Positions 8,680-51,003 of a DNA stretch of 64,000 nucleotides are shown here, in pieces; position 1 is the stretch's first letter; each line of letters begins with the position of its first letter. The notes under the pieces are model-generated. The model saw only the letters and a list, made by a program, of their open reading frames with translations, ran no database searches and was not told where the DNA came from. Made by a program: the position numbers and the translations under genes. This stretch comes from Candidatus Woesearchaeota archaeon (GTDB taxonomy: Archaea > Nanobdellota > Nanobdellia > SCGC-AAA011-G17 > PNOQ01): positions 9,964 through 73,963 of the forward strand of contig CAYZTT010000001.1 in the NCBI GenBank assembly GCA_964481835.1. Reading direction: 5' to 3'.

Positions 8680-9243
8680 TTATTTAAGTTTTACTCTTCT
8701 TCTATAAAAGTCTGCTATAAACATATTCTCCGTAAAAGCTAGTGCAGGTAGGCCGATTAGGACAATACACATAACTACAAAGATTATTGCTAACAGGATG
8801 CTTTTTAAGATGGCAACTATATAATCCCCTAGATCTGTGAACACTGGTTTTAATGCTTTAAATTCGAAATAGGAACTTACTGTCCCTTTTACGAAGAAAT
8901 TTATGGTCAGTATTGGTACTATGAATAATTCCAATAGAACAGTAACAAAGTCTTCTGCACCTTTACCAAAGAGACCAAACCCTTCTGTGATTAAGAAATA
9001 TACTAGTATGAAGGGTATTGCTTTCAGAAACATAAAAAATCCTAGTTTAAAATCAGATTTGAATTGGAAAGTTGGTAATTTTTTGAATTTTCCGTTGGTA
9101 AACTCTTTAATAATTCTAATCCCATAACCACCTAACGGGAACCAACCAATGATCGGTAAAAGTATCCATAGAATATTCCACATTCCTTTTGCTCTGTTAA
9201 AGGGATAGCTGAAAGCTGTCTTGAATCTTAATGTTTTCATCAT
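8680..9243 (-). CDS. Polytopic membrane protein (DUF4013-like)
   Basis: 187 aa with 4-5 hydrophobic helices and a GWFPLGGYG motif. Confidence 0.4.
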   Translation of the reverse strand: MMKTLRFKTAFSYPFNRAKGMWNILWILLPIIGWFPLGGYGIRIIKEFTNGKFKKLPTFQFKSDFKLGFFMFLKAIPFILVYFLITEGFGLFGKGAEDFVTVLLELFIVPILTINFFVKGTVSSYFEFKALKPVFTDLGDYIVAILKSILLAIIFVVMCIVLIGLPALAFTENMFIADFYRRRVKLK

Positions 9244-9332: not shown

Positions 9333-10265
9333 ATGTTCGTAGAAAAATATAGACCTAAAGATTTTAATGAGATGAAGGGTCAAGAAAAGATAGTTGAAAG
9401 GGTTAAAGCTTTAGTTGAAACCGATAATATGCCTCATTTACTTTTCAGTGGTCCGGCAGGCATAGGAAAAACTACTCTATCATTAATTATTGGTAATAAA
9501 TTATTTGGAGATGAAAGAAATAACTTATTCTTAGAATTGAATGCATCAGACGAGAGAGGCATTGATGTAGTAAGAAATAAAGTCAAAGATTTTGCTAGAA
9601 CTAGAGCAATAAAAGATGTTCCTTTCAAAGTAATTTACCTAGATGAATGCGACTCTTTGACAAAAGACGCTCAGCAGGCATTGAGAAGGACCATGGAAAC
9701 ATATTCTAATACTTGTAGATTCATTTTAAGTTGTAACTATTCGAGCAAAATCATTGATCCCATACAATCTAGGTGTACAGTGTTTAGATTCAAACCTTTA
9801 ACTTTTGAAAATATGAAAGAGATTATCCATAACATCTCAGAAAAAGAAGGTTTGAAGGTAACTGAAGAAGCAGGAGAGGCCCTATATGAAATAAGTAATG
9901 GAGATGTTAGAAAATTAGAAAATACCTTACAATCGTGTTCTGTCATGGGTAAGGAGATAACTAAAGACCTAGTTTATGAAGTAGCTAGTGCCGCAAGACC
10001 AAAAGAGATTAAAGAAGTTTTGAATCTAGCAACAAAAGGTTTTTTTGCTGATGCCCGTACGTTACTATTAAAGACAATGTTGAACCATGGTTTGTCTGGA
10101 GTTGATATTATTAAACAGATTCAAAGAGAAATTTTAGCCTTAGATGTAGAGGATAAGAAAAAGATGGAAATGATTGAGAAATGTGGAGAAGCAGAATTTC
10201 GTTTAGTTGAAGGTTCAGATGAGTATATTCAGTTAGAAGCTTTGATTGCTAATTTTTGTCGATAG
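9333..10265 (+). CDS. rfcS: Replication factor C small subunit
   Basis: KYRPKDFNEMKGQEKIVERVKALV, Walker A GPAGIGKTT, DEC(D) box, SRC motif, 310 aa. Confidence 0.9.
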   Translation: MFVEKYRPKDFNEMKGQEKIVERVKALVETDNMPHLLFSGPAGIGKTTLSLIIGNKLFGDERNNLFLELNASDERGIDVVRNKVKDFARTRAIKDVPFKVIYLDECDSLTKDAQQALRRTMETYSNTCRFILSCNYSSKIIDPIQSRCTVFRFKPLTFENMKEIIHNISEKEGLKVTEEAGEALYEISNGDVRKLENTLQSCSVMGKEITKDLVYEVASAARPKEIKEVLNLATKGFFADARTLLLKTMLNHGLSGVDIIKQIQREILALDVEDKKKMEMIEKCGEAEFRLVEGSDEYIQLEALIANFCR

Positions 10266-35250: not shown

Positions 35251-35262
35251 TTAAAATAAATA

Positions 35263-35337
35263 TGGGCCCGATGGGATTTGAACCCACGACCCCCTGGTTA
35301 AGAGCCAGGTGCTACCACCAAACTGAGCTACGGACCC
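35263..35337 (-). tRNA. tRNA-Lys (anticodon CTT)
   Basis: The reverse complement is GGGTCCGTAGCTCAGTTTGGTGGTAGCACCTGGCTCTTAACCAGGGGGTCGTGGGTTCAAATCCCATCGGGCCCA. It folds into a cloverleaf with a 7-bp acceptor stem, a 5-bp anticodon stem with loop CTCTTAA, and a GTTCAAATC T-loop. There is no intron and no encoded CCA. Confidence 0.85.
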
Positions 35338-35377
35338 AATAAGAAAAAGAGCTAAAACTCAATTTAAAAAACTTTTG

Positions 35378-38283: not shown

Positions 38284-38420
38284 ATTTTTATATTCTTGTT
38301 AGTAAGTTTATAAAATTTTTGTTGAACTACTTTTAGTCTTTGATAGAATTATTTTATAATAAATATTATTGTATATTCTTAGAACTTTTAGGGACAGTAT
38401 ATTTTGTTATTGCTTAAAGG

Positions 38421-38972
38421 TTATAAACTCAAATAAACTCGTTTTTCATCAAATGGGCCTTTCTCATCTGGACCAATATCCTCATATATTCTTTTTAATT
38501 GATATGCTATCCTATCCGCCAAATTTACTAAGGGATATAGTCTATCTCCGTCCTTTTCTTGTCTGAATCTCCGTCGGGAAAGCTCTGTATGGAACATTTC
38601 CCCCACTAAAGGAACAAGATCTTCTAGAAGGGGGGATCTTTGGTCGCGCCCGTCTATAATTATGGAAGTTCGGGCGATGTCTATCTGGCCAGATAATCCT
38701 TCTATAAGCTGGGCAATAGTTGGCACCCTTCCGCTCATTCGGCCTATCTTTCTAAAATGCTCTTCGCCCAGAACCATGAACCTAAAATCCTGTGGCCCAG
38801 AAAGGGTTGTGGCGATATCTACTTGTTTTCTTTGTTTTCCAAGCATTTCTTGTGCTTTTCTTACATCTCTTGGGTTTGTAGAAAGTGTGGCAACATATAT
38901 CTCTGGGATTGCCCCATGGTTCGATTCATCTATCCCTATCCAATACCCTATATTTGTTGCTATGGAAGTCAC
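38421..38972 (-). CDS. Hypothetical protein with RNase-H-like N-terminal signature (GIDESNHG), GC-elevated
   Basis: WIGIDESNHGAIPEIYV resembles the RNase HII GIDEAGRG start. A second acidic cluster IIIDGRDQ is present. It sits directly downstream of the tyrosine recombinase. Confidence 0.3.
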   Translation of the reverse strand: MTSIATNIGYWIGIDESNHGAIPEIYVATLSTNPRDVRKAQEMLGKQRKQVDIATTLSGPQDFRFMVLGEEHFRKIGRMSGRVPTIAQLIEGLSGQIDIARTSIIIDGRDQRSPLLEDLVPLVGEMFHTELSRRRFRQEKDGDRLYPLVNLADRIAYQLKRIYEDIGPDEKGPFDEKRVYLSL

Positions 38973-39027
38973 CCCTTCAAGTAATTGGTGTTAGGAGAAA
39001 TTTATAAGCATTTATTGATTAGAACTG

Positions 39028-39873
39028 TTATTCTTCAATATCGTCAAGGACATTTCTCACTTTTTTTAGTTGCTCTTTTGATACATGCGTGTAAATTTGA
39101 GTAGTAGACAGATCCGAATGGCCAAGTAACTCCTGAATTATTCGTATATCTACTCCTGCATCTAGATTGTGGGTGGCAAAGGAGTGCCTTAGTTTGTGTG
39201 CAGTCACCTTTTTGCTTATTTTTGCCAATTTTGCGGTATTTGATATTATTTTTTGAACATTTCTTGCCGAAAGGTGATCTTTTTTCCCAGGAAAGAGATA
39301 TTGTTCTCTTTCGTCTATTGTTTGTATATATTTCTTAATTTCATGTGTTAGTTTCTCTGATAAGAAAAATGCCCTATCTTTTCCGCCTTTTCCAGATCTG
39401 ACCCACCCCATGCCATTTTCTAATTCAATATCCATGATCTTTAGGTTTACACATTCACTCACCCTCAACCCAGTGGAGTATAGTAGTCTCATAATCAATA
39501 GGGATTTTTTTGAAGGAGCTCTTTCAAACAATCTCCTTACTTCTTCTTTTGTTAGGAATATCGGTATTGACTTGGGGATTTTTGGAGTTTTTAGATTTAC
39601 TATACTCATCCCCATAACTTCATGGAAAAAGAACTTTAATGCCGCCTTCTTTACTGCGATGGATCTGGGAGCATGATCTGAGTCGGAAACTAAATATGCA
39701 AAATATTCTTTGATATCTTCTTCAAGAATTTGGGGAGGATGCCTATCTTCAGGAAGATTCTTATTTACATGATTTAGAAAAAGTTTGACATTTTGGACAT
39801 ATGATTCTCTTGTTCTTTGAGAGAACCCCCTTAATTTCATTTCAGTAACTAGCCTTTTTAGACAAATCCCCAT
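39028..39873 (-). CDS. Tyrosine site-specific recombinase (XerA/XerC/D-like integrase)
   Basis: N-terminal SAM-like core-binding domain. The catalytic residues are R (GLRVSE), K, HxxR (HKLRHSFAT), R and Y (LGHSDLSTTQIYTHV). 281 aa. Confidence 0.85.
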   Translation of the reverse strand: MGICLKRLVTEMKLRGFSQRTRESYVQNVKLFLNHVNKNLPEDRHPPQILEEDIKEYFAYLVSDSDHAPRSIAVKKAALKFFFHEVMGMSIVNLKTPKIPKSIPIFLTKEEVRRLFERAPSKKSLLIMRLLYSTGLRVSECVNLKIMDIELENGMGWVRSGKGGKDRAFFLSEKLTHEIKKYIQTIDEREQYLFPGKKDHLSARNVQKIISNTAKLAKISKKVTAHKLRHSFATHNLDAGVDIRIIQELLGHSDLSTTQIYTHVSKEQLKKVRNVLDDIEE

Positions 39874-40015
39874 GAAAATCCCTCTTTTTAGAGTATTTTT
39901 AGGATAAATGGTATATAAAAGTTCGCATAAGGTATGTTAGGCGAATTAGTGTTCTATTTTGCCTTCTTGAGGAGTAAATAATACTCTATTCAGAGAAATT
40001 TAAAAATCTACCGAA

Positions 40016-40396
40016 TTATGCAAGCTCTTCCAAAAGTGCTTGATATTCCCGGGACCTTCTTAAGGCATCTTTCTTTTTGCCTTTCCGTGTAAGAATGTAA
40101 ATTGCTCCTTCGCCTTCTTCCATCCTTCTTTCTACTGCGAAGGAAGTTGCACTAAACCCAGTTATATCTGTCAAATTCTCTGGGAGTTCATATCCTGAAT
40201 GGGACCTGAATGGACCTGAACGGCAAGTTAAATCTATTATCCTAAGTTCTCTGTCAAAGTACAATTCATACCCTTTGCTAGTATTAACTACATGAATCAC
40301 ATCTCCATCTCTCTCAGGAACGCTTGCAAATAAGGACTCTATAGTCCTTACTAGATTAGAGGAAAAATCGTGTGGGATGAATATTGGGGCTTTCAT
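40016..40396 (-). CDS. Hypothetical protein (GC-elevated block)
   Basis: 126 aa with no motif. Same strand and compositional block as the recombinase. Confidence 0.3.
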   Translation of the reverse strand: MKAPIFIPHDFSSNLVRTIESLFASVPERDGDVIHVVNTSKGYELYFDRELRIIDLTCRSGPFRSHSGYELPENLTDITGFSATSFAVERRMEEGEGAIYILTRKGKKKDALRRSREYQALLEELA

Positions 40397-40433
40397 TTTG
40401 AATTATTTATCTTTTAATTTTTGCTAAAAGGTT

Positions 40434-40769
40434 TTAAACATGCAAATAGAGTCCCTGATGCCTTCCTTCTTGACGCTTCTCTACGAGAAAATAGTCTGGA
40501 TCTGGGCCTATAAATTCATAAAATCTCCGGGGCATTTCGCTCCCAGATAATGAAGTGAAGGGACCTAGTTCCTTTAAATCTCCGAGTTCCTTTAACTCTT
40601 GTACCTTTGAAGGTTTTCTTCCGAGAGGATATAGTAAAAATTCTCCGTCTTTTGTTTGGGCTACACCCACTGCAATCGCGTTCTCAAAGGTTGCCAGAGT
40701 TAGCTCTATTGATCTCCTTAGCCTTTGCCATCTTGGCACTCTCACTGATGTAGGTTGTTTTTGTTTCAT
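40434..40769 (-). CDS. Hypothetical protein (GC-elevated block)
   Basis: 111 aa, basic N-terminus, no motif. Confidence 0.3.
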   Translation of the reverse strand: MKQKQPTSVRVPRWQRLRRSIELTLATFENAIAVGVAQTKDGEFLLYPLGRKPSKVQELKELGDLKELGPFTSLSGSEMPRRFYEFIGPDPDYFLVEKRQEGRHQGLYLHV

Positions 40770-40812
40770 TTTTTAATTGCGGAGGTTTGTAGAAAATTAG
40801 CTATTTATAAAA

Positions 40813-41115
40813 CTATCTCTCTTTTCTCTCTGGCCTTTTCAGGGGTTCTGCCTTTACGGCTTTGGGGTTTAATCCTAAAATTATATCCACTAGTTCTGCT
40901 ACTTTTCCTGTTTCTTGGGGATCTTGTGTAGCTACAACCCCTACTTTTCTTTTTAATATACCTTCTGCTGCGAGATAGCTCTCGACCCACTTCGTAAGTC
41001 CTTCTTCCCCGTCTTTGAAGGTTGAAAGATTTGCATGGTTGAATCCCCCGTATGCATCTAGAGACAATAAATATTGGCCATTTACCATATTGTATCCTGC
41101 GGATAATAGTTTCAT
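40813..41115 (-). CDS. Hypothetical protein (GC-elevated block)
   Basis: 100 aa, no motif. Confidence 0.3.
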   Translation of the reverse strand: MKLLSAGYNMVNGQYLLSLDAYGGFNHANLSTFKDGEEGLTKWVESYLAAEGILKRKVGVVATQDPQETGKVAELVDIILGLNPKAVKAEPLKRPERKER

Positions 41116-41212
41116 TTTTCTTAATATCTCCTATAAAATAAGGACCGCCAGGCCCTTTTTAAATGTATCTATTTGTAGCTATTGTATAGTGACAAAAGAT
41201 TTAAAGAAAATA

Positions 41213-41540: not shown

Positions 41541-42185
41541 ATGGTTTTTAGATTGTTCAAAAAAAGACGCGATGTGGAAGAGAAACTGTCTGGTTTGCAC
41601 GATAGTCTGAATGATTCTTTTTCTAAAATTAAGGATGATATGGGGAGTGTTGGGGAGTGGATTAAACACTTCGATCAAACTAAAGAAACTCACCATAGTA
41701 AAATAGAGAATTTAGATACCCGATTGAGATCTGTTGAAGAATTCGTTATGAACCTTATAGAACAGTCTCCCGTCGAGGAAATGTCCAAACAGCTGTCCAA
41801 ACAAGGACAAACAGCTGTCCGTCCGAATCAAACGGATAGTGTGTCCAAACAGATGTTTGAACAGCCGTCCAAACAGCAAAAAGTTGTCCAAACGGATCTA
41901 GAGAGGGCATTAATTAGTTTGACAGCAATGGAAAGGGCATTAGTGTGGAGCCTTTTGAATACAGACATTCTATTAAGTTATGAGGATATGGGTAGGATTT
42001 TAGGCAAAGACCAATCTACAGTGAGAGGACAAATAAATAATATAAAAAGGAAGATTCCTGGGCTAATAGAGGAGAAAAGTGAGGACACAGGAAAGAAGAG
42101 ATACTATGTAAATGAGGGAAAGAAGAGGGATATATGGGTAAAATATACGGGTAAACGGGCAAAAAAGGTCGAAAGTGAGAGCTAA
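41541..42185 (+). CDS. Coiled-coil protein with internal SKQ repeats and C-terminal sigma-70-region-4/HTH_10-like DNA-binding domain
   Basis: N-terminal heptad-like region, (x-S-K-Q) x4 encoded by gtccaaacag repeats, then LTAMERALVWSLLN...LSYEDMGRILGKDQSTVRGQINNIKRKI. Confidence 0.45.
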   Translation: MVFRLFKKRRDVEEKLSGLHDSLNDSFSKIKDDMGSVGEWIKHFDQTKETHHSKIENLDTRLRSVEEFVMNLIEQSPVEEMSKQLSKQGQTAVRPNQTDSVSKQMFEQPSKQQKVVQTDLERALISLTAMERALVWSLLNTDILLSYEDMGRILGKDQSTVRGQINNIKRKIPGLIEEKSEDTGKKRYYVNEGKKRDIWVKYTGKRAKKVESES

Positions 42186-42260: not shown

Positions 42261-43058
42261 TCAGATATAATGACGCAAATGGCCAGTTAACCGTGTTTGT
42301 GAGTGATCCTTCTCTCTGAGAGCTAGAAGATTTTCTAGCATTTTGAGCGTTCTAAACTCTTTTTTTATGGTTAAGTATACCTTTCTATTGGGAGATACAT
42401 TCTTTGTGAGAGGTATTTTCCTTAAAACAAGGTCGCTTATGTAATCTCTAACTGCACTTTGAGATATTAGGAGATCTTTTGCCAGATCAGCATATGTTAT
42501 GGGGGCCTTAAGTTCTTCTTCTAATCGATAGATGGCCATAAAAACCCTGAATTGTGCCTCTGTAAGGCTCAGAAACCTCGATTCTAGGTCCTCTTTAAGG
42601 GTTTGAACGTCATAATAATCTTTTAATCCTTCTGTCGGAGCAGTGTCTGTCTGTCGTCTTTCTGTCGGCAGGTTGTCGGCAGGTTGTCGGCGCAGGACCC
42701 CTTCATTTCCTATGGAACTTTCTTGGATTTTCGGCTTAGGAGGCTCAAAACCATTAAATTTGGGGGTTTTAGGGTTTTTGGGGGTTTTTGTCTCTGGTTC
42801 AGGCACTCTTTGCATGTGTAGAGATTGCTCTAACAAGACCTTAATCTCCTTTATTTCACTCTCAAGCCCTGAAATGCGCAAATCTAGCTCAGAAATAGAT
42901 TCTTTTACCTTTTGAAAGGACAATCTTACTTTACTTTGAAAATCCAATTTAACCCCAATGTAGAAATCTGTGTCGAATTTATAACAATTTATGTGTCGGA
43001 GCAGTGTCGTCTGTGTGTCGAAAGTGTGTCGAAGTGAGAGTATTCTTGTATTAGGCAC
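42261..43058 (-). CDS. Paralogous coiled-coil / low-complexity linker / HTH_10-like protein (non-ATG start likely)
   Basis: Same architecture as 41541-42185: coiled coil (ISELDLRISGLESEIKEIKVLLEQ), P/K/T-rich linker, and C-terminal LSLTEAQFRVFMAIY...ITYADLAKDLLISQSAVRDYISDLVLRKI. The ORF begins with GTG. It is convergent with its paralog. Confidence 0.4.
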   Translation of the reverse strand: MPNTRILSLRHTFDTQTTLLRHINCYKFDTDFYIGVKLDFQSKVRLSFQKVKESISELDLRISGLESEIKEIKVLLEQSLHMQRVPEPETKTPKNPKTPKFNGFEPPKPKIQESSIGNEGVLRRQPADNLPTERRQTDTAPTEGLKDYYDVQTLKEDLESRFLSLTEAQFRVFMAIYRLEEELKAPITYADLAKDLLISQSAVRDYISDLVLRKIPLTKNVSPNRKVYLTIKKEFRTLKMLENLLALREKDHSQTRLTGHLRHYI

Positions 43059-43640: not shown

Positions 43641-44130
43641 ACATTATTATCATTAGAGAATGGGGGTTTTTCTCCTTGCTAGAATTGAGTGTTATAAGAT
43701 CTTGCTGGGAGGCTATACATCTTCTAAAGGGGTGAGAATGTAATAAAATTATTGTGTCTTCTGAACAAGTCTTAAAGGTCACATGGTTAAAAGTTTGTTC
43801 AGTTATATCTGGTTGATATACTTCATTTATCGTATAGTCTCTACTTATCTCCCCTTTCAAACAAACCACCATCTCTACAGAGAGATCTTTGTTATAATAC
43901 TCTTGCAAATCATTATATGTGTCTTCTGTGAACATTATTGAGAATTCTTCAAGGACTATTGTTTTATTCTCTGCTAATTTTGATTCAGATATGCTCTCTA
44001 GTATGGGAAATATTGGATACCCCAATAATATGTACGAGGTAATCAAAAATAATAAGGCTATGGCTATAAACATTATAATAATTTTCCTCCATATGGAATC
44101 CCTTTCTTCTATTTGATTTTCTTCAATCAT
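43609..44130 (-). CDS. Membrane-anchored JAMM/MPN+ (JAB) metalloprotease-domain protein
   Basis: N-terminal TM helix (IIIMFIAIALLFLITSYILLGY). The C-terminal domain has the exact JAMM signature H-x-H-x7-S-x2-D (LLHSHPFRRCIASQQDL), with an upstream conserved Glu candidate (KGEISRD). Confidence 0.55.
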   Translation of the reverse strand: MIEENQIEERDSIWRKIIIMFIAIALLFLITSYILLGYPIFPILESISESKLAENKTIVLEEFSIMFTEDTYNDLQEYYNKDLSVEMVVCLKGEISRDYTINEVYQPDITEQTFNHVTFKTCSEDTIILLHSHPFRRCIASQQDLITLNSSKEKNPHSLMIIMCESDRFSVYG

Positions 44131-45020
44131 GCATGTAGATGTAGATGTAATTGTTTTGTTATTTTTCTAATGTGTTTCTTCCGGATATAGTGTAGTACTA
44201 TCCCTGCAAGTATAAGAATTGTTCCCCCCAGTAATATTCTAAAATCCAGGGTTTCATTTATGAACATTATTGCGAAGGCTATTGATGCGATAGGGGTTAC
44301 TAAGAGACTTATTATTGAAATTGTATCTGCATGTAATCTCTTTGCGCTATATCCAATTAACAAGAATGGAAGTGCGGTGCATAATACCCCCAATACGATT
44401 AAGAGAGGTATGTGGGGCAATATATTATTTCCTAGACCAAATATGAATACAAAGGGGACATAAAATAGTGTTGCAAAGAAAAAGAACCACATGATGGACC
44501 CTATTGAGTGTGTTTTCTCTTCAGATCTAAGGAAAACTAATAATAGTGCATAAAATAATGCGTTACCAAGAGATATCATATTCCCTATAAAAAATCCACT
44601 TTTGAAATTGAATGGATTTATGACAGATAACCCAATCAATGCTACAATAATTGCTAATTTTTGGTTGAACTTTAATTTTTCCTTTAGGAAAAAGAATGCA
44701 AAGATAGTTACAAAGACTACAGAAAAGGAGGAAATTAATATTACATTTGAAACTGGTGCATATGAAAGCGCATATATGAATGACCCTAAAGCTAATGCCT
44801 TTAACATTCCAATTGATATATAATTTGGCAGATCTTTTCTTTTTACTCTATATGCTTTTTTATCTAACATGGGCATTAAAATTGCTAGAAAGATAGATGC
44901 AAATAATAACCTAAAGAAAGTGATTGCCACAGGGTTTATGTCTGGCACAAGAACTTTAGTTATTACACCTACAAATCCTACCAGGATCCCTGCAAGGATT
45001 ATATTGAACTTGGATTTCAT
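44127..45020 (-). CDS. EamA/DMT-superfamily transporter (10 TM)
   Basis: Two EamA-like repeats. Start trimmed to MKSKFNIILAGILVGF to avoid overlap with the divergent nth-like gene. Confidence 0.65.
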   Translation of the reverse strand: MKSKFNIILAGILVGFVGVITKVLVPDINPVAITFFRLLFASIFLAILMPMLDKKAYRVKRKDLPNYISIGMLKALALGSFIYALSYAPVSNVILISSFSVVFVTIFAFFFLKEKLKFNQKLAIIVALIGLSVINPFNFKSGFFIGNMISLGNALFYALLLVFLRSEEKTHSIGSIMWFFFFATLFYVPFVFIFGLGNNILPHIPLLIVLGVLCTALPFLLIGYSAKRLHADTISIISLLVTPIASIAFAIMFINETLDFRILLGGTILILAGIVLHYIRKKHIRKITKQLHLHLHA

Positions 45021-45069
45021 TATTAGCTTTAGGGTTAAGTTTTTAAAAATGTTTGCCCAAACTAATTGT

Positions 45070-45678
45070 ATGAATAAAAAGAAAGCTGTGCAGCAATTGG
45101 GTGAATTGAGAAAGAATACTAAAAATATGCGATTGACTGCAGAAAAATGGGATAGGCCATGGAAAACTCTGATTGCCATATTGTTGTCTGCTAGGACCCG
45201 TGATGAAATGACTATCCCTGTAGCTAGAGAGTTGTTTAAGAGATATTCTAGTTTGAATAAACTCAGTAATGCAAAATTAAGGGATGTTGAGAAAATAATC
45301 AGACCGATAAATTTTTACAAAAATAAATCCAAAAATGTTTTAGGTTGCTCAAAAATGTTATTGGAGACCCATGGGGGAAAGGTCCCTAAGAATTTTGAGG
45401 AGTTGTTACATTTGCCTGGTGTTGGTAGGAAGACTGCCAATGTATTTTTGTCTGAATATGGAGGTGCAGCAATCGGTGTGGACACACACGTGTTTTACAT
45501 TTCCAAGAAACTGAGTTGGAGTAATGGAAAAACCCCTGAGAAGGTAGAGGGCGACCTTAAGAGATTGTTTCCTAAGAACTACTGGACCAAGGTAAACCCA
45601 GTATTGGTAAGATTCGGAAAAACGTATACAAGTAGAAAGGTGAAAGATAAATTGCTTCTTAAGATTAAAAATTTATGA
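45070..45678 (+). CDS. nth: HhH-GPD DNA glycosylase, endonuclease III-like, lacking the C-terminal Fe-S loop
   Basis: Helix-hairpin-helix LPGVGRKTANVFL with the catalytic Lys, and VDTHV with the catalytic Asp. There is no C-terminal Cys cluster. The start is uncertain (45049 or 45070). Confidence 0.7.
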   Translation: MNKKKAVQQLGELRKNTKNMRLTAEKWDRPWKTLIAILLSARTRDEMTIPVARELFKRYSSLNKLSNAKLRDVEKIIRPINFYKNKSKNVLGCSKMLLETHGGKVPKNFEELLHLPGVGRKTANVFLSEYGGAAIGVDTHVFYISKKLSWSNGKTPEKVEGDLKRLFPKNYWTKVNPVLVRFGKTYTSRKVKDKLLLKIKNL

Positions 45679-49914: not shown

Positions 49915-50178
49915 TTAGATTATGTCTTCTTCGGCAACAACTATAAAATCACCGATTGCGATTACTGCGCTAAAAGGAATTAATAATCGTCCTTCGTCTG
50001 TTCTTTCCAAATCTAAATTAGAAGCAAGTGATGTTGGACTTTTCAGTTCAAGCTGCAATAGTTCTCCTGTTTTTGTTTCAAAATGAATATTTCCTAAATC
50101 TCCAAATTTCTTTCCAGTCTTACTAACTATTGTTTTTCCAAGAAGATGTTTTGAATATCTTTTATCATTATTTGACAT
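49915..50178 (-). CDS. PRC-barrel domain protein
   Basis: 87 aa. LLGKTIVSKTGKKFGDLGNIHFETKTGELLQL is the typical PRC-barrel core. Confidence 0.45.
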   Translation of the reverse strand: MSNNDKRYSKHLLGKTIVSKTGKKFGDLGNIHFETKTGELLQLELKSPTSLASNLDLERTDEGRLLIPFSAVIAIGDFIVVAEEDII

Positions 50179-50228
50179 TTTAGGGGCCTCCTTAAATAAG
50201 GGAGTATTATCTGCTTTATAAAATTTTC

Positions 50229-50540
50229 TTAATCTACTTCTAGGGCATTAGCCAATGTTTCTCTTAATTCTTCAAATGAAGACTTTATACTGTTCTTTAT
50301 TTCTACTATAAGTGGTTCATCATTAACTGATTGGGCAATAGATGCTCCCGTTTGGATATATTCATTATCTGATTGTATTGCTTGATCAACAGACAGACTG
50401 CCCATTATTGTAAAAAATAAAATCATTACTATAATAGCAATTACAATTAATTTTAATGCAGTTCTTGTGAATAAATGTTTAGATATTTCTAAGACTATTA
50501 CCCCTACTACTATTATAATAATAATTGATATTATATCCAT
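50229..50540 (-). CDS. Small membrane protein
   Basis: 103 aa with two TM helices. Confidence 0.3.
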   Translation of the reverse strand: MDIISIIIIIVVGVIVLEISKHLFTRTALKLIVIAIIVMILFFTIMGSLSVDQAIQSDNEYIQTGASIAQSVNDEPLIVEIKNSIKSSFEELRETLANALEVD

Positions 50541-51003
50541 ATCAATATAATAAGAGTTTTTATTTATAAGGTTTTTTATGGCTGAATAAATCGGGGACTC
50601 CCACCCCTATTTCTATTGGAATTATTGTATTTATGGATGTGATGGGTATTTCATATGGAATTATTTTTTAAGGTATTTTTTGTATGGGGTTTTACGTGTG
50701 TTTAAGTGTATTTTTATTGATTTTTAGTAAAAATTTTTATGTTTCAAATTTATGGTTTAGAAGTCTTGAAAGTGAAGAATTTGATTATATATTATATATT
50801 ATATTTATAAGTTTTATTATTATATATATATTATATTATTATATATATATTTTATAGTGTTACTATTGAAAAGTTTCTATAGGAAGAAGGGGTGTACCCA
50901 TCTGCAAACATGAATCAAGAAAGTTCCATTGGAAATATAGGTCCGTGTCTCTATTTTTTAGTATAGCAATATTTATAATCATAATTTATCAGTCGTTTTT
51001 AAG
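50541..51003. other. Predicted chromosomal replication origin (oriC) with ORB-like repeats and AT-rich unwinding element
   Basis: A 460-bp non-coding region sits immediately upstream of orc1/cdc6. It holds three copies of a (t)tcyatTGGAAt core: 50611-50624 tttctattggaatt, 50651-50663 ttcatatggaatt, and the palindromic 50923-50936 gttccattggaaat. A (ta)n-type AT tract lies at ~50784-50858, and a G-string ggggactcccacccc at 50594-50608. Confidence 0.6.
50971..50978 (+). promoter_or_regulatory. TATA-box-like element for orc1/cdc6 (leaderless spacing)
   Basis: atttataa lies ~26 nt upstream of the ATG at 51004. Confidence 0.3.

Follow-up and report, generated by a model that had tools for sequence, protein, structure and literature searches.

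The closest described counterparts of the locus analyzed here are the archaeal XerA/dif systems (Pyrococcus abyssi, Thermoplasma acidophilum and Sulfolobales), in which a single tyrosine recombinase of approximately 280 aa with the catalytic set R-K-H-R-H-Y is paired with a 28-bp site, two inverted arms of 11 bp each around a spacer of 6 bp. Modules consisting of xerA and dif have already been reported for some archaea (PMC5357621) and for Sulfolobales (PMC2958812), with the gene and the site adjacent in both cases (a prediction in the case of Sulfolobales). In Thermococcales, dif is located far from xerA, at a switch in the polarity of skewed words (PMC2958812); a position of dif at such a switch is not universal in archaea, Sulfolobales being an exception. 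The XerS/difSL and XerH/difH systems similarly form modules in that one recombinase gene lies directly beside its resolution site (PMC5357621). A search of the literature yielded no description of xerA/dif in DPANN archaea.

The locus described here belongs to a Woesearchaeota (DPANN) archaeon and very probably represents its native xerA/dif module for chromosome dimer resolution, as indicated by direct observations on the family assignment of the recombinase, the architecture of the site, the conservation and synteny of both, and the absence of features of mobile genetic elements (MGE). The recombinase and the 28-bp site share the size, the catalytic set and the geometry of the archaeal systems, and the two are adjacent as in Sulfolobales and 'some' archaea; unlike in Thermococcales, the site abuts the recombinase locus and no polarity switch occurs in 64 kb. 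The coordinates below are those of the window, that is, the whole stretch of 64,000 nucleotides of DNA that was analyzed.

35262-35338, minus strand: tRNA-Lys(CTT), the sole tRNA of the window
38421-38972, minus strand: p183, a 183-aa ORF that contains GIDESNHG
39028-39873, minus strand: xerA, a 281-aa ORF for a tyrosine recombinase
39871-39873, minus strand: ATG start codon of xerA
39880-39884, minus strand: SD-like GAGGG
39874-39919, minus strand: 5' region and putative promoter of xerA, read from the sequence
39912-39919, minus strand: TATA box TTTATATA, which directly abuts the proximal dif arm
39920-39947: dif-type site AGTTCGCATAA-GGTATG-TTAGGCGAATT, an imperfect inverted repeat of 28 bp (11-6-11)
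39920-39930: xerA-proximal arm of the site
39931-39936: 6-bp spacer of the site
39937-39947: distal arm of the site
39998-40017, minus strand: promoter-like motif AATTCGGTAGATTTTTAAAT of 20 nt, the outer limit of a gene slot with variable content
40016-40396, minus strand: p126, a 126-aa ORF
40434-40769, minus strand: p111, a 111-aa ORF
40813-41115, minus strand: p100, a 100-aa ORF

The recombinase and its adjoining dif-type site

A sequence-only reading of this DNA had described the five ORFs on the minus strand, a tyrosine recombinase with its catalytic set, the GIDESNHG motif in the 183-aa protein and a single tRNA, all of which are present. The 281-aa recombinase matches both the Phage_integrase (1.3e-45) and SAM_4 families of Pfam, and a motif search combined with alignment to the P. 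abyssi XerA structure 4a8e located the complete set of catalytic residues (R137, K165, H226, R229, H252 and Y261). The protein scores 256 bits against the NCBIfam model NF040815 (recomb_XerA_Arch), for which the equivalog cut-off is 220, and the match is nearly full length, with residues 8-272 of the protein aligned to positions 3-262 of the 263 in the model. The best PDB matches are also archaeal XerA proteins, from P. abyssi (4a8e, 2e-53) and T. acidophilum (5hxy, 3e-41). Other recombinase models remain below their cut-offs: the archaeal phage integrase family of Pfam (PF16795) scores 18 bits (cut-off 27), the XerS model 92 bits (far under its cut-off of 267) and NF011946 135 bits (cut-off 435), and the match to IntI (TIGR02249; 215.5 bits, cut-off 265) is split at the expected IntI-specific insert. 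The recombinases of XerS/difSL and XerH/difH also differ from the present one in their size (about 356 aa) and their dependence on FtsK, and difSL, at 31 bp with an 11-bp centre, differs from the site described here.

The dif-type site lies 46 nt upstream of the xerA ATG. The pattern TTCGCNTAAN6TTANGCGAA has a single match in the 64 kb, compared with 0.03 expected, and even with up to 9 mismatches allowed, the window contains only one copy of a dif-like site, as does each of the ~20-kb loci of relatives. By hand count, 20 of its 28 positions are identical to E. coli dif. The site is retained with 1-6 mismatches in L006-L011, L018, L022, L086-88 and L090-96, and at least 12 related genomes of Woesearchaeota, with XerA proteins of 63-98% identity, have kept the combination of site, TATA box and spacing. 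The distance from dif to the start codon is 46 nt in 10 of the 12 aligned genomes (window included), with 37 nt computed for L093 and L011, and 10 related genomes show almost the same sequence over the 46-nt stretch itself. This fixed layout, with the proximal arm abutting the TATA box of xerA and 46 nt to the start in most of the genomes examined, distinguishes the locus from the archaeal XerA/dif systems described so far. The 28-bp site matches the full canonical architecture of dif (PMC8371274).

A single recombinase, XerA, would bind both 11-bp arms of dif, the 28-bp site just upstream of its own gene. When two copies of dif are available, as in a chromosome dimer, XerA would carry out strand exchange where the 6-bp spacer meets the arms and thereby yield monomers. 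The proximal arm sits just upstream of the TATA box, and XerA bound to dif probably also represses transcription of xerA, which would amount to autoregulation.

The position of the site relative to the promoter also bears on a different reading, namely that the 28-bp site is an operator or serves some other XerA reaction, such as local inversion, and that the true dif lies elsewhere. In its favour, the site and the BRE position of the xerA promoter overlap, two relatives carry the module in inverted orientation, and there is no skew switch at the site: GC skew has the same sign on both sides within the 64 kb (+0.087 to the left of dif and +0.130 to the right), and the polarity of GTTG:CAAC is likewise unchanged (192:74 to the left and 94:37 to the right), so that a location of dif at the terminus is unsupported here. 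We nevertheless consider this reading very unlikely because the site shows the canonical architecture of dif (PMC8371274) and strongly resembles the dif of both bacteria and archaea, dif is typically located next to the gene in Xer systems with a single recombinase (PMC5357621), and the window contains no partner site in inverted orientation.

The sites give a well-conserved consensus for Woesearchaeota dif, (A)NTTCGCCTAA-YATAYM-TTAKGCGAACT. Together with the fixed arrangement of dif and promoter, it can serve in the annotation of dif, as an anchor for assembling the genomes of these uncultured archaea and in tests of XerA autoregulation. When metagenomes were scanned for the proximal arm followed by the TATA box, the same clade alone was recovered, along with three unrelated half-matches. 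A scan of IMG/VR with the dif pattern produced 23 matches, none linked to this clade, and was uninformative: all are perfect TTCGCATAA/TTATGCGAA palindromes, or their CC/GG variant, and their spacers are unrelated. Viral contigs of ~40 kb that are derived from isolates account for several of them.

Composition and neighbourhood of the xerA locus

The sequence-only reading had taken the five genes for a compositionally foreign block of orphans and leaned toward a small integrated plasmid or virus, or a remnant of one, with the recombinase as its integrase. Its GC contrast holds in direction and fails in magnitude. The block has 38.1% GC, slightly above a window mean of 35.4% (not ~30%, as had been stated) with an SD of 1.9, and 10% of the windows of the same size reach or exceed this value; ~29% GC is confined to the AT-rich intergenic spacers at both ends of the block, which makes the contrast appear bigger than it is. 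The rise is limited to the four small genes (40.5-42.6% GC; z 1.2-1.7, per gene), whereas the recombinase gene, at 35.7% (z -0.1), is at background level. Furthermore, GC3 is normal in all five genes (z -0.2 to 0.6) and the rise stems from the first and second codon positions in the four small genes; it therefore reflects amino acid composition and no foreign mutational bias. An Rfam search of the intergenic spacers at E values up to 1 detected no ncRNA.

Apart from the slightly raised GC of the four small genes, an integrated element might be suspected because these genes lack annotated domains and because the block is bracketed by a 20-nt inverted repeat of 85% identity (38349-38368 and 41122-41141). 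The 14 kb of AT-rich DNA searched contain 53 pairs of this kind, including this one, which is located in promoter regions. Direct repeats that could represent att sites were sought over 33-47 kb and only short ones, at chance level, were detected; no flanking direct repeat thus rises above chance. No partial copy of the tRNA-Lys gene longer than 11 nt is present in the window. Matches to PHROGs are limited to the integrase itself, scans of IMG/VR gave no relatives of the trio p126, p111 and p100, and the PADLOC search came out empty. The recombinase shares the tyrosine recombinase fold with the integrases of SSV- and pTN3-type MGE; unlike the genes of those integrases, the gene here is intact, unsplit by integration, and is accompanied neither by a tRNA target nor by att repeats.

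Comparison with related genomes bears on the same question. The neighbourhood of xerA is conserved in relatives down to ~42-55% identity, and in all relatives sampled the same housekeeping genes stand on either side of xerA (SerRS, PAC2, EndoIII, ArgRS, Lon and the Topo I side; shared flanks in L006-L011, L018, L086, L090 and L093; partial in L014, L016 and L023). Both xerA and dif are present in every relative sampled, whereas p183 and the trio p126, p111 and p100 come and go independently of each other, so that the block does not behave as a single unit. Its presence in relatives is largely borne out: xerA-dif is universal among the relatives sampled, the trio is found in the closest of them, and the gene for the RNase-H-like protein is ancestral but patchy. 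A unit consisting of the 20-nt motif, dif and xerA is inverted in L007 and L011.

Taken against an integrated element, these observations (a recombinase that scores above the XerA equivalog cut-off, is syntenic in every relative and has a dif of its own, in a gene block of normal GC3 free of MGE features) leave that origin with hardly any credibility, and the lean toward an integrase is not borne out. A conserved dif next to the recombinase, together with presence of the block in all relatives, had been named beforehand as counter-evidence to such an element, and this is largely what was found. The alternative that had been offered alongside, an archaeal XerA, is supported by the equivalog score, the conserved neighbourhood and the adjoining dif-type site. 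A false mobile-element call is thereby removed: a recombinase among unannotated small genes of a DPANN archaeon turns out to be a housekeeping XerA with its dif.

The trio upstream of xerA and the variable slot beside dif

The three proteins p126, p111 and p100 had been called orphans, which is accurate insofar as none of them has a match in Pfam, NCBIfam, PHROGs or PADLOC, or in a PDB sequence search, and three scans of IMG/VR revealed no relatives of the trio; related genomes do, however, encode homologs of all three at this locus. For p126, these are 84% identical in L090, 77% in L093, 68% in the P0007 genome and 55% in L086, and the p126 family is lineage-restricted. The p111 protein is a shorter paralog of p126 (blastp E values of 4e-10 for p111 against L086_125 and 1.6e-5 for p111 against p126), with invariant G61, P62, F63, S65, S67 and G68 common to both in the alignment, and has orthologs of 70-72% identity in L090 and L093. 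Counterparts of p100 occupy the same position in L090 (95% identity) and L093 (54%), and a 95-aa protein from the corresponding region of L009 shares 28% identity with p100. The divergence of the trio (p100/p111/p126: 95/72/84% identity with L090 and 54/70/77% with L093) is similar to or slightly above that of the flanking genes. We conclude that the p100-p111-p126 operon is specific to the lineage, evolves fast and is inherited vertically, and that it is no cargo of a mobile element.

Between p126 and dif lies a slot whose content changes from genome to genome. Its far edge is marked by the 20-nt motif, which occurs with 0-1 mismatches in L007, L018, L086, L090, L093 and L097, always in the orientation of xerA, and which in the relatives is located ~25-30 nt before the ATG of the slot gene, whichever gene that is. 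The motif resembles other promoter regions of the window (2551 and 21549). Neither the window nor L007 has anything in the slot. Elsewhere it contains a gene for a 108-aa membrane protein in L090, a 123-aa lipoprotein-like protein in L093, a 131-aa protein in L018 and the P0007 genome, and a GNAT in L086, the last four codons of which coincide with the dif arm. The DNA flanking the slot is ~88% identical on both sides across relatives. This unusually fast gene turnover beside dif, together with the inversions, means that the site may do more than resolve dimers.

One form that such an additional role could take is XerA-dependent capture, in which small cassettes (the trio and the slot genes) are inserted or exchanged at dif. 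Similar arrangements exist in IMEX (CTXphi, TLCphi and GGI) and in the pdif modules of Acinetobacter, where variable genes also lie directly beside dif; there, a dif-like site stands at each end of the inserted DNA, whereas the present locus has one site and no element-borne genes. The integron (IntI, attI, Pc and cassettes) is comparable in that a tyrosine recombinase gene and an adjacent recombination site occur together with a promoter-like motif that is fixed and an ORF that can be swapped, but here the cassette and the recombinase are co-directional and the spacers between ORFs, at 37-43 nt, leave no room for attC-like repeats. Beyond the different content per genome between the conserved motif and dif with flanks of ~88% identity, capture would fit with the boundaries of several sequences, as two independent Logan assemblies (L003 and L004) begin inside the distal dif arm and the contig of L006 begins 3 nt before dif, and with the inversion of the motif-dif-xerA unit in L007 and L011.

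Several lines of evidence speak against this scenario, which we regard as unlikely. Each locus has one dif-like site, the other edge bearing no further full site, not even a degenerate one, and matches to the half-site (up to 1 mismatch) are at or below chance, with 23 observed and 32 expected. The 20-nt motif fits the general promoter pattern of the organism, the trio is vertically inherited, and L018 and L097 share ~75% identity in the gene for the 131-aa slot protein (hand count), as would be compatible with vertical descent. In the clade of L008-L010, the gene adjacent to dif is kept and the variable part lies farther off. No carrier element was found among the viral contigs searched, and homologous recombination through the conserved flanks plus deletions explains the pattern. 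An arm-like match (9 of 11 positions) at the 3' end of p126 was considered as a second dif and rejected, being unconserved in L018 and L086 and within chance.

With similarly low likelihood, then, the native dimer resolution module could double as a gene-capture platform, in which a fixed strong promoter, AATTCGGTAGRTTTTTAAAT, and dif bracket a one-gene slot whose content is swapped or lost between close relatives. Recombination at dif catalysed by XerA could bring about the swaps. If true, this would be an archaeal analogue of the IMEX/integron logic, built on a housekeeping Xer system, in which the module itself can flip. The fast-turnover gene slot beside dif may outweigh the original question in importance.

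An RNase HII-like protein encoded downstream of xerA, and its family

The 183-aa protein had been described as RNase-H-like, a call with which its family profile, an AF2 model and Foldseek all agree. The Pfam profile of RNase HII (PF01351) does not match p183 and gives weak matches, with a best E value of 0.0033, for 16 of 81 relatives. A profile of the p183 family retrieved RNase HII structures from the PDB, 1eke at 1.8e-6 as well as 1uax, 1i39 and 1io2. The AF2 model, built with 81 sequences, has a pLDDT of 93, and the top 17 Foldseek hits to it in the PDB are all RNase H2/HII, with E values down to 1.4e-5 and a TM score of ~0.6. Accordingly, p183 is a divergent RNase HII-like protein (type 2 RNase H fold) and a member of an unannotated, DPANN-restricted family; it is a putative nuclease.

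The family comprises 226 representative clusters in which D15, E16, D107 and D143 are invariant, and in the alignment with 1eke these four acidic residues coincide with the active-site D-E-D-D of RNase HII/RNase H2A. The roles of the four are presumably those of D7, E8, D105 and D135 of Tk-RNase HII. In other respects p183 differs: it is only 15-19% identical to RNase HII/RNase H2A, and the GRG motif with which RNase HII recognizes the RNA-DNA junction is replaced in p183 by a nearly invariant S17-N18-(H)-G20. The protein is also ~30-45 residues shorter, so that the C-terminal helical and PCNA-binding tail is missing. An unannotated DPANN-wide family with the RNase HII fold and an altered substrate-recognition motif may likewise outweigh the question with which the analysis of the locus began.

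A connection of the p183 family with xerA was considered and rejected: four of four distant DPANN members are located in housekeeping contexts with no recombinase nearby. Within the clade studied here, the final 21 codons of p183 are still found in L093, left over between xerA and the gene that follows, and in L006 p183 has been cleanly deleted. Judging from these sequences, the p183 gene is ancestral downstream of xerA and was later deleted in several sister lineages.

Composition of the five-gene block and identity of its recombinase

The window was drawn from a 96.9-kb metagenomic scaffold (ENA ERZ23498660, SUTE22-1 scaffold_499), and its GTDB relatives are Candidatus Woesearchaeota/Nanoarchaeota MAGs. 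The five minus-strand open reading frames of the sequence-only reading, which took them for a possible integrated element of elevated GC content, were recovered with the same boundaries:

40813-41115 (-), p100
40434-40769 (-), p111
40016-40396 (-), p126
39998-40017, conserved 20-nt motif
39920-39947, dif-type site
39028-39873 (-), xerA, tyrosine recombinase of 281 aa
38421-38972 (-), p183, RNase HII-like protein

The block is mildly richer in GC than the window as a whole (38.1% versus a mean of 35.4%, SD 1.9 among equal-size windows), but the anomaly is weak, with 10% of equal-size windows at least as high, and the surroundings have about 30% GC, as had been claimed, only in the AT-rich spacers at both block ends. 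The four small genes have 40.5-42.6% GC and the recombinase gene 35.7% (z -0.1); GC3 is ordinary in all five (z -0.2 to 0.6), which places the surplus in codon positions 1 and 2 and hence in amino-acid composition. The strongest compositional outlier of the window lies elsewhere, at two small ORFs of very low GC3 (49915-50540 and 50800-50855; 0.16, z about -3) that adjoin TATATATATATTATATTATTATATATATA, a stretch made up of A and T alone and palindromic in part. The window does have a single tRNA gene, identified as a minus-strand tRNA-Lys(CTT) (35262-35338).

The recombinase matches Pfam Phage_integrase and a SAM-like N-domain, and contains the catalytic set R137, K165, H226, R229, H252 and Y261. 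Its identification as an archaeal XerA is borne out by the NCBIfam XerA equivalog NF040815, matched nearly end to end (256 bits, cut-off 220), and by its best solved relatives, XerA of P. abyssi (4a8e, 2e-53) and of T. acidophilum (5hxy); it falls below the cut-offs of the NCBIfam integron-integrase, XerC, XerD and XerS models.

A dif-type site upstream of xerA

The window was searched for dif as 11-bp inverted repeats with a 6-8-bp spacer, following Cortez et al. (PMC2958812). One candidate, AGTTCGCATAA-GGTATG-TTAGGCGAATT (39920-39947), falls within the 142-bp spacer immediately upstream of xerA; across the window the degenerate dif pattern has a single match, where 0.03 would be expected. 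By our own count the candidate agrees with the E. coli dif sequence at 20 of 28 positions. The site, which the sequence-only reading had proposed to look for, is kept in 12 related genomes (loci L006-L011, L018, L022, L086 and L090-L096), where it is followed directly by TTTATATAC and then by the Shine-Dalgarno-like AAAGAGGG. The distance from dif to the xerA start codon is 46 nt in ten of them (47 in L009; 37 in L093 and L011, as computed), and a similar site is found 0.7-3 kb from xerA in the more distant relatives L012, L015, L017 and L023. Because the proximal dif arm abuts the xerA TATA box, where the BRE would lie, this placement suggests that xerA may be autoregulated.

Archaeal dif has been defined as an 11-6-11, single-copy site (PMC8371274), far from xerA in Thermococcales and close to it in Sulfolobales (PMC2958812), and, according to a review, some archaea have an individual xerA/dif module comparable to the XerS/difSL and XerH/difH systems (PMC5357621). 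The window departs from the textbook model in that GC skew and the strongly skewed GTTG word both keep the same sign on either side of dif within the 64 kb, so that a terminus location is unsupported. Cumulative GC skew climbs monotonically over positions 1-64000 and the GTTG:CAAC ratio is ~2.6:1 to the left and to the right of dif, which would fit a window within one replichore unless the bias has another cause.

Conserved neighbourhood and inheritance of the block

Synteny was assessed by tblastn of 22 window proteins against related loci. The order ArgRS/p134/EndoIII/p173/p179/p265/p214/p75, variable small genes, dif, xerA, with or without p183, then tm197/K70/p136/PAC2/p252/.../SerRS/TopoI is kept where XerA identity is 53-98%, and partly at 42%. 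This conservation marks the recombinase as a native chromosomal gene, and the locus is best described as a native xerA/dif module. Together with the XerA model match, the adjacent dif and normal GC3, the synteny largely refutes the proposal that the recombinase is the integrase of an integrated plasmid or virus remnant.

Two of the conserved neighbours, 41541-42185 (+) and 42261-43058 (-), have no family assignment, although every relative has orthologs of them. Their N-terminal halves are coiled-coil-like, and each has a C-terminal helix-turn-helix with weak NCBIfam and PHROG matches (1e-3 to 1e-5) to sigma-70 region 4. The ~310-nt overlap between the mechanical ORFs of an EamA-type transporter (44127-45179, -) and endonuclease III (44869-45678, +) is artefactual and stems from extended ORF starts, given the shorter genes in relatives and public gene calls.

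The block is shared with relatives in part: xerA and dif are present, p100, p111 and p126 recur in L090 and L093, and p183 is patchy. The three proteins, regarded earlier as orphans, indeed have no relatives in Pfam, NCBIfam, PHROG, PADLOC, PDB or IMG/VR, but homologs occupy the same locus in related genomes. Profile search placed p126 and p111, the latter a truncated paralog of the former, in a family of 11 clusters, on whose contigs xerA is likewise preceded by p75-100-111/105-126. Identities to p100/p111/p126 are 95/72/84% in L090 and 54/70/77% in L093, against 80-95% and 71-98%, respectively, for flanking proteins, and L009 encodes a 28%-identical relative of p100 in the equivalent region. 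The trio is thus vertically inherited with somewhat faster divergence, rather than recently acquired.

The RNase-H-like nature of p183, the protein with the GIDESNHG start, is upheld by profile and structure comparison. Exhaustive profile search yielded 226 representative clusters at 50% identity (P0014-P0233; ~170-200 aa), mostly labelled 'hypothetical protein' and, where an organism is named, from Woesearchaeota, Nanoarchaeia or Pacearchaeota. Residues D15, E16, D107 and D143 are invariant, and G13, S17, N18, G20, P23, E24, G108, N150, A152 and D153 nearly so. PDB matches of the family profile are RNase HII chains only (1eke, 1.8e-6; then 1uax, 1i39, 3p83 and 1io2), and the confident AF2 model (81 sequences, pLDDT 93) has RNase H2/HII as all of its best 17 Foldseek matches in the PDB. 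Unlike canonical RNase HII, p183 falls under the Pfam threshold, carries a conserved S-N-H-G where the junction-recognition motif G-R-G would be, and has no C-terminal extension. These proteins form an unannotated, DPANN-restricted family with the RNase HII fold.

p183 is not a mobility marker: its homologs in four distant genomes have no recombinase nearby and are surrounded by tRNA synthetase, SRP54, gyrase B and ribosomal genes. It is located downstream of xerA in the window, L086 (72% identity) and L018 (35%), a position that is ancestral in the clade. It is cleanly deleted in L006; in L093 its last 21 codons persist between xerA and the next gene (9705-9780, E 2e-4), which shows loss by deletion in that lineage.

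Variable gene content beside dif

The motif AATTCGGTAGRTTTTTAAAT (39998-40017) is conserved with 0-1 mismatch in L007, L018, L086, L090, L093 and L097. It resembles other promoter regions of the window and, where a gene separates it from dif, lies ~25-30 nt before the ATG of that gene, and so is most simply read as a putative promoter. The slot between motif and dif differs in content in almost every related genome, while the DNA on either side stays ~88% identical.

Slot content between the motif and dif
Window, 39948-40017: empty
L007, 3049-3191: empty
L090, 6441-6844: 108-aa membrane protein
L093, 8380-8834: 123-aa lipoprotein-like protein
L018, 9485-9948: 131-aa protein, as in L097
L086, 8527-9072: GNAT acetyltransferase ending in the dif arm

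In L086, the last three sense codons and stop of the GNAT gene (AAC TTC GCC TAA, 9044-9055) form the distal dif arm. Such replacement between conserved sides would be compatible with an IMEX- or integron-like site at which XerA captures genes. Capture would also accommodate the inversion of the motif-dif-xerA unit relative to conserved flanks in L007 (3049-4062, with no other genes left between the flanks) and L011 (9915-10816), as well as three contigs that begin in or at dif: two independent Logan assemblies of one species share their first base, which lies within the distal arm (L003 and L004, 1-21), and a GTDB MAG contig starts 3 nt ahead of dif (L006, 1-31); strains may differ, or the assembly graph may branch, precisely there. 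Nevertheless, we consider capture improbable: the window contains no second dif copy at ≤9 mismatches, the 131-aa gene common to L018 and L097 fits vertical descent, and the L008-L010 clade keeps its dif-adjacent gene, with the variable part further off. These observations argue for ordinary gene turnover beside conserved functional elements.

No account of Xer/dif in Woesearchaeota, or of IMEX elements in archaea, turned up in the literature searched. In IMG/VR, 23 viral contigs (L102-L124), most of low GC, carry perfect palindromes TTCGCATAA-N6-TTATGCGAA (or a CC/GG variant). Several of these contigs derive from isolate genomes, as proviruses of roughly 40 kb with flanking sequence in common, and the palindromes might serve as dif-like att sites, operators or terminators.
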